Positions 8,656 through 34,700 of a stretch of DNA of 64,000 nt are shown here, in pieces. A model generated the notes under the pieces. That model had not been told where the DNA came from, made no database searches, and saw only the letters and a list, made by a program, of their open reading frames with translations. How positions within the stretch are numbered: position 1 is the first letter of the stretch; every line of letters starts with the position of its first letter. The DNA comes from a virus. The stretch lies in IMG/VR virus record IMGVR_UViG_3300024313_000004, positions 32,001 through 96,000 of that record. The stretch is one strand, 5' to 3'. The translations under genes were made by a program, and so were the position numbers.

Positions 8656-9387
8656 ATGATAAAAGATTTAAGTTTAGGACCAGTTTTCACAAGTAAGTAT
8701 GGTGATGTGAATTCAATAAATTGGTTGAATGGAATCATCAAAAAGTATATTGCAGAGGTTTATAGACCTTTTGGATATTATTATGGATGTCCTAATAAAG
8801 ACATTGATGTGGATGGTAGAAAAATAAATACAGAATATATTGCGAAGATGGTGAATAATTATACCGTTTTCAAAGGTATAATAGAGAAAGTTGGTATAAC
8901 GACTGAGGAAGAATTTTATGATTATATGACTAATAATTTATTTGATGTGTATAACTACAAAGGTCTTTACTTTGATGAAAAGACTTTACCAATTCTTATA
9001 GCAACCACCAGAAGAGGTAATAAAGGTGAACAAGATTCTTTAATTTTCTTTAAAAATGAATTACTTAAAAAGGGTATTCAATGTGTAATGATATCACCTA
9101 CACCAGAAGAAGATTTATCAGGTATAGATGGTAAATTCATTTGGAATGGTAAAGAATTGACTATACAAGTAAAGCCTTATGATAATATTATGGAGAATGA
9201 TGGTTTAGTGAGTGCGTACTCTCAAGGGTCGTTATCACTTAAAATAGTAGGATCTAGTAAAAATGTAGATTATTTAGTATTATATAAACTAGAAAAAAAT
9301 AGCTTTATTATTGTTCGTTCAAGTAATACTACTGTACAAGGTAATCTATTTAAATTCCCAAAAGATAAGATAATTTCAATGAAATAA
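8656..9387 (+). CDS. PD-(D/E)xK-fold endonuclease-like protein
   Basis: GNKGEQ...EEDLSGIDG...TIQVKP fits the E / D / QxK arrangement of PD-(D/E)xK nucleases. Confidence 0.55.
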   Translation: MIKDLSLGPVFTSKYGDVNSINWLNGIIKKYIAEVYRPFGYYYGCPNKDIDVDGRKINTEYIAKMVNNYTVFKGIIEKVGITTEEEFYDYMTNNLFDVYNYKGLYFDEKTLPILIATTRRGNKGEQDSLIFFKNELLKKGIQCVMISPTPEEDLSGIDGKFIWNGKELTIQVKPYDNIMENDGLVSAYSQGSLSLKIVGSSKNVDYLVLYKLEKNSFIIVRSSNTTVQGNLFKFPKDKIISMK

Positions 9388-9416
9388 AAAAGTCACTCAT
9401 TCTGAGTGACTTTTTT
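9386..9416. terminator. Bidirectional terminator, CACTCA/TGAGTG family
   Basis: AAAAAAGTCACTCA-TTC-TGAGTGACTTTTTT between convergent genes. Confidence 0.88.
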
Positions 9417-9430
9417 ATATTTTCTAAAGT

Positions 9431-10898
9431 TTATATACCTCCAAAGCCATTGAATATATCCATTACGACTGACAATCTCTCAGTTATTTCTGGCATTCCC
9501 AACGGTTCGATAATCTTATTTATCGGTGCCAAAATACACTTAGCGAATTGAATATCATAATTTATTTCAGGTGCAATCTCAATAGGATAAGAACCTCTGA
9601 TATATGCAAATATATCACCGTTATGTGTATCTTTACAATAATAATATTTTATCTTTGTTCCTGATTTTATAAACTCATATTTTGTTTGTAATAGTTTATT
9701 TTGATTTAATAAGTAATTATGATAAGCACTTGCCTTAACTGCAAAGTGTGCTCCATTTACAAACTTTAATGGTAATGATTTATCGTCAATTACTTTAGCA
9801 TCATAGTTCGAACAAGAAGATTGCATCGCGATATCGTCGATATCTGCTAACTCAAATTCTTTACGTAATGCTTTTATGAGTTTAAGTAAATCTTTGATGT
9901 TGAATGTATTTGAATTCTCAAATAAATATTTAACAATATTGATAATTTTCTCCCTAGCGAAAAGTGGTGTTGATGATCTAACAAGTTCCACTCCTTTTGG
10001 GTATAAGTATGATAATCTTTCATAAGGTATACCATCTTCAAAAGAAACATGTTGTATGTATTTCTTCTTAGCCAGAGATATAATAGATTCTGATATTCTT
10101 TCTAACTCAAAATCTTCTTTATTATCTACTCCAAATCCTGCAGCATAATCTTCTAAACACTGTTTGAAATATCCACCATATCTGTAATGGTCCATTCCGT
10201 GTATATAGTCTACTTCTCTTGACCAGTTCCATTTTACATCACAGGTAAGAGAACCACTTGAAACTAAGTTCATAAAATCTCTATCTTTTATGAATAAACC
10301 ATCTACAATTACCATTTCATAGTCCATTGTTAAAAGCTTTTCAAAGTCATTATAGTTTTCTGCACCACCAAGATAATTTGGATTATCAGTATTGATTTTT
10401 TTTGGTGATAAAACGATAAATTTCTTATCAATCTCACTTAATGATTTTGGATTTAGAAATAAATTCTCCCATTCTGAATGTTCTATTGCAGGTAGGAATG
10501 ATACAAATAAAGAATCGGTATCTGCATATATTGATACTGCTTCATTATTATTTATCTGTGTAACATTTCTAATACAAAGATTTTTATGGAATTCTTCATC
10601 TAAATGCCATTGATTATACCAATAATCTTCATTTACCATATCCATAGTTTTTGTTAAATCCCTTCCTTGTGCTGTAATTGTGCCTGCAACATGATTATTA
10701 TATAATATGAAGTAGGCTGTCGCGAATGCTCCGTAAGAGCCGTTCAGTACTAATTTTAGTCTTTTTGCCCCCAGTAAAAAATACCGGGGGCTAAACAAGA
10801 GCGAGCTGAAGTGCGTTGTAGTATTCCGCTTCCTTCTTTAGCTCGCTCGCTTGTTTTTTTAAAGACTCGATTTTTGATATTTTATCTTCTCGTGTCAT
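9431..10898 (-). CDS. polB: Family-B DNA polymerase, C-terminal subunit (fingers/palm/thumb; gp43B-like), interrupted by a 40-nt coding gap at 10757-10796
   Basis: ORF1 10898-10791 (MTREDK...YYNALQLALV*) joined to the ORF2 frame gives motif B QLALKLVLNGSYG; motif C YADTDS; AKKKY; KGVELVRSS; predicted 475 aa after joining. Confidence 0.88.
10767..10791 (-). other. GC-rich RNA hairpin inside the polymerase coding gap (candidate bypass signal)
   Basis: GCCCCCGGUA-UUUUU-UACUGGGGGC; the G-U pair makes it perfect only on the mRNA strand; no U-tract follows. Confidence 0.8.
10793..10856 (-). other. Long 5' stem-loop covering the proposed take-off codon
   Basis: AAACAAG(CG)AGCGAGCU pairs with AGCUCGCUCUUGUUU (15 bp, 2-nt bulge); inner GAAG/CUUC and GCG/CGC pairs. 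Confidence 0.7.
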
Positions 10899-10921
10899 AT
10901 AATTTATATACTTTTTATTAA

Positions 10922-10978: not shown

Positions 10979-12082
10979 ATGGTAAAGGAGAAAGAAGTTT
11001 TAATTAAAATAAACATTAGAAATAGAGTTCATTTTGAAAGATTGGGGTATTCTATTGATGATGAGATATATGTTTCGGTTGTTGATTTGTTACCTGGTTC
11101 TAAATTTAAAGTCACTGCAATTTGTAAAATTTGTGAATCAGAAAATATACTACCATATAGTAAATATCTGGTAAATAAAAACAGAAATGGTAAAAATTAC
11201 TATTCTTGCTTTCGTTGTAAAACACATGTTAAGGAAAAAACTTGTATGGAAAGATATGGTGTAAAATCATATTCAATGACTAATGAATTTAGGGTATCAG
11301 AAAGTATAAAATGGAGAGGTATTAAAAAGGGTGGAGATAAAGGTGAAAAAACAATGTTGGAAAGGTATGGTGTAACATCATATTTTAAAACCGATAAGAG
11401 TAAAGAATATAATAGTAAATGGATGTCATCTGATGAGTTTAAAGAGAAGTCTAAGAGGACGATGTTGGAAAGATATGGAGTAGATCACTATTCAAAATCA
11501 AGTAAATTCAAAGAGTATATATCCTTAAATAAGGATCATATAGTTAATAAAATTAAAGAAACGTTTATTAATAAATATGGTGTGGATAACGCATTTAAAT
11601 TAGGAAGTTATAAAAAGAAAATGTTAGATTGTAGAGATAGTATTGAATGTAGTAAAAGGGAAACTTGTATGGAAAGGTATGGTGTGGATAATGTATCAAA
11701 AGTGGATATTATTAAAGAAAAGAGGAAAAAAACATTATTAGGTAATGGTCAAATTGTACCGGATGATAAAATAACCTCCTGGGAACTTTATAAAAAAAAT
11801 GTTAGAAATATGACTAAACGGAATAAAAAAATACTATATGAAGTATGGAACGGATTTGACTATTATGATAATGAATTTATTAAAGGTTATCTATCTCATA
11901 CACATACACACCGGTTTTATCCGACGATTGATCATAAAACTTCGGTATATTTTGGGTTTATAAATAAAATAGATCCAAATATAATTGGATCTATTGAAAA
12001 TTTATGCATAACCAAAAGGTTCATAAATTCAACTAAATCTAAAATGTGTGAAGAAGAGTTTTTAAAAATATTAAAGTCTTAA
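10979..12082 (+). mobile_element. Free-standing HNH-type homing endonuclease with ERYGV repeats
   Basis: Five (K/R/E)TxxE(R/K)YGV repeats; CxxC Zn motifs; C-terminal PTIDHK...IENLCITKRFIN H-N-N motif; opposite strand to both neighbours. Confidence 0.75.
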
Positions 12083-31766: not shown

Positions 31767-34700
31767 ATGGATCAAAAGTTATTAAATGCATTAAATAATC
31801 TATCAGAGGCACTTCAGGAGATATCGGATGCTCTTAAAAGTAAAGGTGGTAATTCCGCAACTGCTAACGCATTACAAAGTGGTGACTTTATTTCTGAGAT
31901 AAAGGAAATAAGTGTTGGTATAAAACAACTTCAAATTGATAATAAAAAGATATTAAAGAATCAAGAGACTATAATACAACTTTCTAAAAAGGCCGCGGGT
32001 GATAAAAAGAGTGATTTTGAAAAAGCGGGTGGTGATAAAAAACAGGAAAGTAATATTAAAAAGGGAGTTGGTACTATATTATTAATTGCGGTTGCGGTAT
32101 TGGCTATAGGTGTGGCATTTAAGCTTGTTGGTGGTATAGATTTTTTATCTGTTATTGGTTTATCTATTGCTATATTAGTGGTTGCTAAGGCATTCGAGCA
32201 AGTTGCCTTACTAAAAATGAGTCTAAAGGAATCTGCAATTGTATCTGCTGCTCTTATTATGATGGCAACTGGTATAACTATATCATCTTGGATAATGTCT
32301 AAAATTAGTACAATTTCAATTGCACAATCTTTAACTGCTATTTTAATTGGTGTTGGATTTAGTACTATGGCACCTGCTATACGTAATATCATATCATCAT
32401 TCGGTGGAATGGGTTGGGGTAGTATTATTAAAGCGGCTGTTGGTTTGGTTATGGTATTGCCAGCAATTGCAATGGGTATTACCTTATCATCTTGGGTATT
32501 GAGAATGATTACACCTATTGGATTTGGTCAGGCTATTACTGCGATTTTAATAGCTGGTATGTTTACGGTTCTTTCTTTCTCTATTAAGAAATTAATAAAA
32601 GCATTTGGTACCGGATTTGGTACTTTGGTTAAGGCAGTATTATTTTTACCATTGGTTCTGCCTGCAATTGCATTAGGTATTGCCATGTCTTCTTGGGTGT
32701 TACAAAAAATAACTCCAATTACATTTTCTCAAGCAGTTAGTGCAATTTTAATTGGTGCTATGTTTACGGTTATTGCATTTGGTTTAAAGAAGTTATTGGG
32801 TGCATTTGGTGGCAACGCTATAATTGGGTTGGGTGCCGCTATATTATTTTTACCAACTGTTATGGGTGCTATTGCAGATGGTATTGTTCGTGCATCAAGC
32901 CACTTGAAGAAAACTGAAAAAGTAGGTTGGACTCAAGCTTGGAGTGCGATATTAATTGCTGGGATATTTACAGTTATATCGTTTGGGTTGAAAAATATTA
33001 TGAATGCTATGGATTCTATAGATAATCCATTGGGTATTTTATTGGTTCCTCTTTTATTACCTGCAGTTGCTTACGCTATACAACTTTCATCAGAACCATT
33101 GAGTAAAGTGAGTCTTATGACAATGGATCAGTTTTGGACATCTTTGGGTATATCAGTTCTTTTTATTGCATTTGCATTTGCATTAAAATTAATAGGACCT
33201 TCTATTGAGAAAATAGGTATGGGTGTGATAATTAAAATACCTTTGATGTTTACTGCACTTTCTGGTGCGATTTGGGCATCTTCTAAAATATTATCACAGG
33301 CTGATGTTATGTCTGATGATTTTTTAATGGGTTTACTTAAATTCTCAACAGTATTGGCCATTTCGGTTGCGGCTATGGCTGGCGTTACGTTTCTTCTTAA
33401 TAAAGTTGGTTTTACAAATATCATTAAGGGTGTTATTGCTATACCTATTATAGCTGGTGTTATAATGGCATCATCTTTAATTTTATCACTTGGTAAATAT
33501 GATAAAAAATCATATCCTAGTCTTGATTGGGCATTGGGTGTTGCTGCTAGTGTTGGTGGTTTTGCATTAGGTGCTGCTATTTTAGGACCAATGGTATTTG
33601 GTCCTCAGGCATTCTTATTTGCTGCTGGTTTGGCTGCAGTTCTTGCGGTTGCGGGAACTGTTGTTGCGGCCTCTCATATTCTTTCTAAAGGTGATTATAA
33701 GGGAGGTCCTGATTTGATTTGGTCATTAAGTGTGTCTAAAGTGATGAAGATTTTTGGTGGTTTGACTGCACTTCTTGGGGTTATGCCCAAATCTTGGGTA
33801 AAGGATGGTAATAAGGCTATACGATCTGTTGTAGATTCTATCGTTTATGCCGCTTGGATTTTCAAAGGTGCCGATGCTGCATTTACTGGTGGTCCGACAA
33901 AAGCTTGGGCTGAGGGAGTAGGTATTGCCATTGGTGCATTCTCACCAGTTTATGCTATGATGATGGCAAATGGTGTTGCTAAACTTTTTGGTGGTGGTGG
34001 TGTTGGACCTAAAGAGTTTTCTGATGCTATACGAACGGTATCTAGGGGTATTATAGATGCTGCAGGTATTTTTGCCAATCCTGAAAATACTGCGGTTTGG
34101 ATAAATGGTCCGACAAAGGCCTGGGCTGAGGGAGTAGGTACCGCAATTTCCGCATTCTCTCCTGTTTATTCTATGTTATTGAAAAATGGGATTGCTAAAC
34201 TTTTTGGTGGTGGTGGTGTTGGACCTAAGGATTTTGCATTGGCAATAACGACTATATCTCAAGGTATTATAGATGCGGCAGGTATTTTCGCAGAAAATGT
34301 TTCAAGTTTCGAAGAAGGTAAATATCCATCTAGTGAATGGGGTAAAGGTGTTGGTGGCGCTATAACTGCATTTGCTCCAGTATTTAAAGCATTGAGTGAG
34401 GATACTGGTTGGTTTACATCAGGTGACGAAGTTATCAATAATATGGTAAATGGTGTTCTTACCGTTGCGGGTGCTATCGTAGGTGTTGCAAATAAGTTTT
34501 CTGCTGATGATGTGAATTGGACTAAGTTTCCTGATAAAAACTGGTCATATCACATTAAAAATGTAGTTAATTCTTATGTTGCTTTATCAAATAGTGTTAA
34601 TAAGAAAAAGGTTACATGGTCTACACTTAATAGTCTAAGAAATGTTGTTAATTCGATTGCAACTACCGCAAGGATTTTTGGTAAAAATAGTAAGTACTTT

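Follow-up and report, generated by a model that had tools for sequence, protein, structure and literature searches.

A conserved stem-loop 5' of a coding gap in the split family B DNA polymerase genes of huge phages

Long-range translational bypassing so far rests on one model, gene 60 of phage T4, in which a 5' stem-loop, according to those parts of Samatova (2014) and Chen (2015) that are relayed in PMC6551183 and to bioRxiv 10.1101/2024.12.09.627546, folds on emerging from the ribosome and gives directionality; pairing within the exiting messenger RNA (mRNA) has been argued to drive one-directional forward movement (Wills, Parsawar and Atkins, bioRxiv 10.1101/2024.12.09.627546). Whether this stem-loop matters is under dispute, since homologues of gene 60 do not conserve it. 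Cassettes of the gene 60 type and MobA elements have been found only in topoisomerase genes, Topo2L (Manning and Atkins, bioRxiv 10.1101/2022.08.31.505936). Described here is a stem-loop in codons 1–35 of a gene that encodes the C-terminal fragment (fingers, palm and thumb) of a family B DNA polymerase (PolB); the stem-loop stands directly 5' of a hairpin-bearing coding gap. The gene lies in a stretch of 64,000 nucleotides (nt) of viral DNA (the window; positions 32,001–96,000 of the 134.6-kb IMG/VR record IMGVR_UViG_3300024313_000004, the record being an estimated 23% or so of the genome); relatives of the record are uncultured phages of 630–640 kb, and the genome of the window has 30% GC. 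A full-text literature search returned no description of polB coding gaps in huge phages.

The C-fragment is encoded by two open reading frames (ORFs) in different phases (Table 1), the second of which was matched to Pfam DNA_pol_B (PF00136, E 4.6e-16) and also aligned by tblastn. The corresponding reading is continuous in the insert-free homologues of LR745206.1 and LR756502.1 (YYNALQLAL-KLVLNGSYG); compared with insert-free homologues the window has exactly 40 extra bases, placed between Leu34 CUU and Lys35 AAA, the last three of them being CUA (Leu), so that a hop from CUU to CUA would join synonymous codons. Omission of 10796–10757 gives QLAL-KLVLNGSYG, identical to 22 insert-free homologues; exact removal of the insert restores the catalytic motif Q-x-A-x-K-x3-N-x-x-Y-G, and motif B was restored in every insert-bearing case. 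The insert is untranslatable, given the stop codon within it and the +1 change of phase that it brings. Some process must skip the gap, and skip it exactly, because in a working polymerase Lys35 must be on the same chain as the remainder of motif B, no start codon follows the gap, and gaps of this kind occur in all phases with stop codons. Bypassing fits best because a stop stands within two codons and a stable hairpin at the 5' end of the gap; take-off at Leu34 CUU and landing on the CUA 40 nt downstream is the most likely course suggested by the sequences. No transfer RNA (tRNA) genes were found in the window to indicate which tRNA reads CUU and CUA.

Table 1. Features of the polB locus (positions in the window; -, minus strand; +, plus strand).
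Feature	Position	Strand	Remarks
5' stem-loop	10793..10856	-	5' arm 10856-10840 (codons 15-20); 3' arm 10807-10793 (codons 31-35 and U of UAG)
ORF1 of the PolB C-fragment gene	10791..10898	-	ATG at 10898, 35 codons, then UAG (10793-10791)
ORF2, +1 phase	9431..10756	-	Resumes at Lys35 (AAA, 10756-10754); motif B KLVLNGSYG, motif C YADTDS
Proposed take-off codon CUU, Leu34	10797..10799	-	Last codon matching insert-free homologues (L001, L002 and 20 others)
Non-coding insert, 40 nt	10757..10796	-	GUU, UAG, 10-bp C5/G5 hairpin (10791-10767), A-rich spacer, landing codon CUA (10759-10757)
Candidate outer helix P1, 5' strand	10861..10867	-	Codons 11-13 including the Ser12 codon; complementary to 10764-10758
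Candidate outer helix P1, 3' strand	10758..10764	-	End of gap spacer and first two bases of landing codon
Homing-endonuclease-like gene, free-standing	10979..12082	+	Divergent from the pol fragment, about 80 nt from the pol start

Several other readings of the gap were considered and rejected: an alternative genetic code (the ORFs are in different phases, and the inserts of relatives use TAA, TAG and TGA); a simple +1 or -1 frameshift as the general mechanism (inserts are found in all three phases, those in phase with stops), which in the window would moreover add 13 residues to the motif B helix; a sequencing or assembly artefact (36 further distinct contigs carry such inserts); re-initiation after the gap (there is no in-frame start, and several loci have landing-frame stops just before the landing codon); and take-off from GUU to the in-frame GUA at Val37, by which the catalytic Lys35 would be deleted.

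The locus is like gene 60 in having a coding-sequence hairpin just upstream of the codon for take-off, beside a take-off hairpin and a stop, and placed to refold at the mRNA exit. Among the traits of gene 60-type gaps an exact omission, re-pairable codons, a take-off stem-loop at the gap's 5' end and an upstream 5' stem-loop are present; the codon that directly follows the take-off codon in the window is neither a stop nor a hungry codon. The polB case differs from gene 60 in its 3' arm, which takes in the take-off codon and extends into the insert; in its helix (15–19 bp, about -25 kcal/mol), which is conserved and co-varying in 24 loci; and in gene, phage group and sequence. The byp elements of Magnusiomyces capitatus mitochondria, in so far as Lang (2014) is relayed in 10.1101/2022.08.31.505936, are likewise GC-rich hairpins of a few tens of nt in an AT-rich genome, with matched take-off and landing codons and no Shine-Dalgarno (SD) help; these occur in many copies in many genes, whereas the polB hairpin is single in the 134.6-kb record and tied to an endonuclease gene, and a conserved 5' stem is not described for byps in those portions of the literature that were examined. 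A pattern search of the 134.6-kb record (about 23% of the genome) gave no second copy of the gap hairpin, and no exact copies of it were found in IMG/VR.

Folding of the region bore out exactly the structure proposed in an earlier sequence-only reading, a 15-bp stem with a 2-nt bulge and GAAG/CUUC and GCG/CGC extensions, and the 5' stem-loop is confirmed. The 5' arm consists of 10856–10850 and 10847–10840 with the bulge (10849–10848) between them, and is paired with 10807–10793 (7 + 8 = 15 bp); the stem is extended by GAAG/CUUC (10836–10833 with 10811–10808) and then by a 3-bp GCG/CGC helix, the innermost and the only part of the stem not conserved in relatives. The same reading was right in placing the stem over the take-off codon and against the UAG: the 3' arm holds Leu34 CUU (10799–10797), the next codon GUU and the U of UAG (10793–10791). 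Directly 3' of it follows the gap hairpin (10 bp at 10791–10767, part of a -20.6 kcal/mol fold of the 40-nt insert). The minimum free energy (MFE) of the 64-nt stem-loop was -24.6 kcal/mol vs -12.4 ± 2.4 kcal/mol for dinucleotide shuffles (z -5.0, 0/200), and the 161-nt context with both hairpins gave z -7.3. Codon-shuffled controls, which had been proposed as a check, agreed: synonymous recoding of codons 9–35 by window codon usage gave a mean of -9.2 kcal/mol (standard deviation 2.8), 0/2000 recodings reaching the observed -25.6 kcal/mol, and permutation of the synonymous codons already there also reached the observed MFE in 0/2000 cases. The arm codons are as GC-rich and unusual as had been remarked: GC content at third positions was 0.67 in the 5'-arm codons vs 0.19 in the long ORFs of the window, and usage within the amino acid was 2% for AGC, 2% for CTC, 11% for GCG and 12% for CTA, among the rarest in the genome.

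Relatives were collected by a scan of IMG/VR with the downstream protein (78 loci); deduplication and addition of two GenBank homologues left 58 distinct genes besides the window, all of them split PolB C-fragments on huge-phage contigs, and these were placed against the insert-free protein. A hairpin insert of 36–48 nt in the same 30-nt stretch of motif B was found in 36/58 homologues, and 22/58 were without it. Each insert has its own C-run/G-run hairpin; the 37 inserts (the window counted here and in the next figures) fold at -16.8 to -31.5 kcal/mol, differ in sequence and are alike in build. The inserts are found in all three phases, and a stop stands at the first codon after the last matching codon in 5/37 and at the second in 25/37 (30/37 within two). 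Five loci have the insert after Ala33 (GCU to GCA or GCU), 17 including the window after Leu34 (CUU, CUG or CUC to CUA), two after Val37 (GUU to GUA or GUU), three after Gly40 or Ser41, and nine after Tyr42, in most of which a codon other than Tyr precedes the resumption point. Loci with the insert after codon 33, 34 or 37 are called lineage I below, those with the insert after codons 40–42 (12 loci) lineage II. In lineage I the codons of take-off and landing are synonymous in 24/24 loci. The inserts of L054 and L056 are one G apart in the hairpin's G-run (41 vs 42 nt), and insert phase therefore does not matter.

The stem was compared as the MFE of 84 nt ending 6 nt beyond the take-off codon, the equivalent region being used in insert-free genes. 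It is present in 24/24 lineage-I genes (23 homologues and the window; mean -24.7, range -16.8 to -31.7 kcal/mol) and in 0/22 insert-free genes (mean -8.8, range -3.1 to -14.5 kcal/mol), with no overlap of the two ranges (Mann-Whitney U = 0, p 7e-9). In the tree computed from residues 46–474, insert-bearing and insert-free genes are interleaved, and the insert-bearing partner has the stem in 9/9 sister contrasts; because of the interleaving, the link of stem to insert is not explained by polymerase phylogeny. Gap-free homologues with the same codons and the same stem would have spoken against any tie of stem to gap, and the insert-free genes share neither. One insert-free gene (L031), sister to the insert-bearing L054/L056, shows an 8-bp stem remnant at about gene nt 45–105, AAGCAAGC with GCUUGCUU, and may represent a precise loss of the insert.

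For covariation, the 21 codon-33 and codon-34 loci were aligned without gaps. Standard pairs occupied 79% of cells vs 35–45% with partners slid by 1–3 columns; the covariation score was 0.221 vs 0.149 ± 0.012 for shuffled alignments (0/500). Four core-helix pairs show double changes, among them U-A in place of C-G in five sequences (by way of synonymous Leu and Gln codons) and A-U or C-G in place of G-C; in one locus (L035) Glu19 to Ser and Leu32 to Thr change together and the helix is retained. Cognate arms paired at -20.3 kcal/mol vs -16.5 kcal/mol for swapped arms (0/5000 permutations), and insert-free genes gave -4.9 kcal/mol. The position of the arms follows the take-off codon: in all 24 loci the 3' arm covers about -9 to +6 and the 5' arm about -56 to -39 from its first base, and in the two codon-37 loci, which are not close relatives, the 3' arm is built from codons 33–37, not 30–34, so that the take-off codon is covered again. 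Such compensatory changes, the preference for cognate over swapped arms and the shift of register agree with the earlier suggestion that the GC-rich codons reflect selection on RNA structure. These comparisons give good support for the stem as a selected RNA element whose presence is bound to the coding gap.

Pairing could also be selected in an intrinsic terminator or attenuator, in pol sense or antisense. A U-run follows the 3' arm in 13/17 codon-34 loci, and on the plus strand a T-run at 10857–10863 follows the stem; the A-run and U-run, however, pair with each other as an outer helix, the loop region is 33 nt, the U-tract of the window is interrupted, and the five codon-33 loci keep the stem without a U-run. 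The stem was not flagged by a consensus scan, and a good bidirectional terminator is already present at 9384–9418 between convergent genes. In the core helix G.U pairs outnumber A.C mismatches (8 vs 2), and the pol-sense strand is therefore the one under selection, which speaks against an antisense signal. Termination after 100 nt would be lethal, the gene being the only one for polymerase catalysis. We regard a terminator or attenuator as scarcely credible.

The gene at 10979–12082 was assigned by Pfam DUF7487 repeats and PHROG homing-endonuclease families. An endonuclease homologue lies divergently upstream of the pol start in 22/36 insert-bearing homologues (and in the window) and in 0/22 insert-free genes; eight loci without the endonuclease gene keep insert and stem. 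The endonucleases of the codon-33, -34 and -37 loci are 48–62% identical to that of the window; those of the codon 40–42 loci are only about 30% identical to it, and these loci are therefore taken as a second cassette lineage. By protein the window is closest to L004, L005 and L062 (86% identity), all three of which lack both insert and endonuclease gene and differ from it at the 5' end. The first 102 nt of the window gene are 94% identical to those of L074 and 65% identical to those of the nearest protein relative, L004, and the downstream sequence of L074 is 52–83% identical to the window over successive 60-nt windows; the 5' end of the gene, the stem included, thus moves together with the insert. 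The best reading is of a mobile cassette with three components: the homing-endonuclease gene, the opening 105 nt of the gene for the PolB C-fragment, and the 40-nt hairpin insert. Two loci (L014/L015) and L028 have near-identical polymerase C-terminal sequences and different insert lineages (codon 33 vs codon 42), by which a recent cassette replacement is implied.

A 5' end that travels with the cassette is also what would be seen if the stem had no RNA function and its codons hitch-hiked with the endonuclease, as a co-conversion tract or as protection from its own nuclease; the T4 MobA cassette is likewise accompanied by divergent flanking sequence (10.1101/2022.08.31.505936). Nuclease protection, however, needs a change of sequence and not complementarity, the stem is kept after loss of the endonuclease, and the compensatory pairs, the excess of G.U over A.C, the better pairing of cognate arms and the codon-37 register shift all indicate that pairing itself is selected; hitch-hiking alone is considered very improbable.

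The cassette is comparable with MobA (Bonocora 2011, in the part relayed by bioRxiv 10.1101/2022.08.31.505936): in both a free-standing endonuclease gene stands beside a short untranslatable hairpin insert, which is placed in a strongly conserved motif of a replication gene that is essential; occurrences of the cassette are dispersed across the tree of the host gene, and the endonuclease is often lost with the insert kept. The differences are that the site is motif B of PolB and not topoisomerase II at Asp45/Gly46; that the endonuclease gene is divergent and upstream of an already split gene; that the polB inserts are 36–48 nt long at five or more codon positions, with the stop usually at the second codon after take-off; and that there is no sign of host SD pairing for the polB system. 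With the nuclease-like gene that splits nrdA in Acinetobacter phage KARL-1 the window endonuclease shares only repeat modules.

The reading towards which we lean, with some reserve, is that the stem is a selected mRNA structure, part of the mobile cassette, which folds again once the ribosome has moved past and so favours forward sliding, the part ascribed to the 5' stem-loop of T4 gene 60; this forward-biasing role, and bypassing as such, we infer from the arrangement of the sequences. With CUU in the peptidyl (P) site, the 3' arm (-9 to +6) would lie inside the ribosome and be single-stranded, and the 5' arm (-56 to -39) would already be out of the mRNA exit and free; on a forward slide the emerging 3' arm would zip onto the waiting 5' arm, and the zipped stem would block backward movement and so bias sliding forward. 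The sequence-only reading had proposed a 5' stimulatory element: what stands, by the comparison, is a selected RNA linked to the gap; it is not universal, lineage II having none. A role of the stem as a stimulator of bypassing is likely on this evidence. The further proposal of a Lys/Glu-rich nascent helix as peptide signal gained no support, since a Lys/Glu-rich N-terminus is shared by the insert-free homologues; over the first 34 residues these differ little from insert-bearing genes, and only Ser12 and the A-S-E-L codons that form the 5' arm are linked to the insert. Ser12 was found in 21/24 lineage-I and 8/12 lineage-II insert-bearing genes and in 0/22 insert-free genes, a link that may be a feature of the RNA rather than a peptide signal.

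The Ser12 codon lies in the 5' strand of the candidate outer helix P1 (Table 1), which in the window is a 7-bp duplex of AGUCUUU with AAAGACU (-7.6 kcal/mol) and could enclose both hairpins. Its partners co-vary across loci (AGUCAU/AUGACU, AGUCUCUA/UAGAGACU, GUCACU/AGUGGC), and over the 24 loci cognate partners were better than swapped ones in all but 1 of 5000 permutations; the helix is weak (median -5.5 kcal/mol), is absent in about 10/24 loci and stands outside the predicted 161-nt MFE fold. P1 bears on the possibility that the stem was selected for the gap and acts before or at take-off, not as a ratchet: the ribosome might be slowed by unwinding of about 25 kcal/mol, the G-run and C-run of the gap hairpin might be kept from mispairing, or a three-way junction of stem, gap hairpin and P1 might place the landing codon beside the take-off codon. 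The partner-specific complementarity of P1 favours such an action and would explain the Ser12 codon and a conserved AUGA before the landing codon, and the first 4–7 nt of the insert pair with the 5' arm or the 3' spacer to give alternative folds; the weakness of P1 and its absence from many loci and from the MFE fold count against it, and an action before or at take-off is thought rather unlikely. That P1, the 5' stem-loop and the gap hairpin together form a three-helix mRNA device, which drives a 40-nt hop with neither SD pairing nor a stop in the aminoacyl (A) site, is put forward tentatively, as a possibility to which we give somewhat less than even weight.

Several observations weigh against a forward-biasing stem in a gap of the gene 60 kind. 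Stem and insert are co-inherited as one cassette, and the raw association is partly shared descent; covariation and the shift of register alone do not depend on it. The 5' stem-loop of the gene 60 family is itself not conserved between clades, and its importance is debated (10.1101/2022.08.31.505936). In the window GUU (53% of Val codons) separates the take-off codon from UAG, so that the A site is not occupied by a stop, unlike in gene 60; as the window genes show no SD use, landing is probably not assisted by SD pairing in the way it is in gene 60. Lineage II is without the 5' stem (-13.5 vs -13.0 kcal/mol for insert-free genes in the same register), and no conserved 5' structure was found by alifold in the Tyr42 loci; the stem is therefore not required for every polB gap. 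The Tyr42 loci (L017, L021, L028, L029, L030, L034, L038, L051 and L071) are usually without a matching landing codon, the codon before resumption being AAC, GAC, UAA, CAA or AGC, and simple tRNA re-pairing therefore does not explain all polB gaps. Instead, the gap hairpin of lineage II is longer and begins immediately 3' of the take-off codon, and the sequences flanking its gap pair with one another.

Both the mutual pairing of these flanks and the lack of a matching landing codon in the Tyr42 loci would suit an insert that is cut from the mRNA and rejoined by a phage or host activity, the 5' stem, gap hairpin and P1 being the substrate fold that unites the junctions; the three-helix layout would set both junctions at one branch point. 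A search of Rfam 15 families, however, gave no ribozyme or intron family at the gathering threshold (only hit L17DE, 21.2 bits vs gathering 37, E 0.12), a group I or group II intron would need far more than 36–48 nt, and the synonymous codons at all lineage-I loci and the stop within two codons at most inserts are needs of translation and not of splicing. Removal from the mRNA is accordingly held to be improbable.

As to the three-helix device put forward above, it would if true provide the first exit-side refolding helix demonstrably under natural selection, and exit-side refolding would be a general motor of long-range bypassing and not a peculiarity of T4. The non-homologous polB gap family, set in an essential polymerase gene, offers about two dozen natural variants of a 5' stem-loop, which co-vary, track the take-off codon and are gone where there is no gap; together with the sister lineage without the stem they form a comparative and mutational series for the idea of sliding powered by refolding. 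For the annotation of huge-phage genomes it matters that such polymerase genes are called broken or as two ORFs.

The G-run of the gap hairpin ends 8 nt before the landing codon, but an SD-like 4-mer was found upstream of only 1/46 long window ORFs (7% background), and the host of the phage therefore probably makes no use of SD pairing. The start codons of the window have A/T-rich leaders with no SD motif, which fits an SD-independent host such as Bacteroidota.

The exonuclease/motif A half of the split polymerase is not in the 134.6-kb record; in the complete relatives W01 (LR745206.1), G001 and G002 it is a separate ORF of about 515–531 amino acids, with more than 100 kb between it and the C-fragment gene. 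The region's best match to a sigma-70-like promoter (11/12 positions) is at 10874–10903 on the plus strand, inside the first pol codons and directed toward the endonuclease gene; if used, it would start endonuclease transcription antisense to the pol start. In Acinetobacter phage KARL-1 (L085, 41849–42748) a gene with the ERYGV repeat modules of the window endonuclease lies between two annotated pieces of the nrdA large subunit, a layout of MobE-like genes-in-pieces. A further large interruption near residue 115, about 80 codons downstream of motif B, was seen in L050, L053, L059 and L066 (about 1.6 kb extra) and in L054–L056 and L068 (0.36–0.5 kb extra), and may be another endonuclease, intron or intein insertion.

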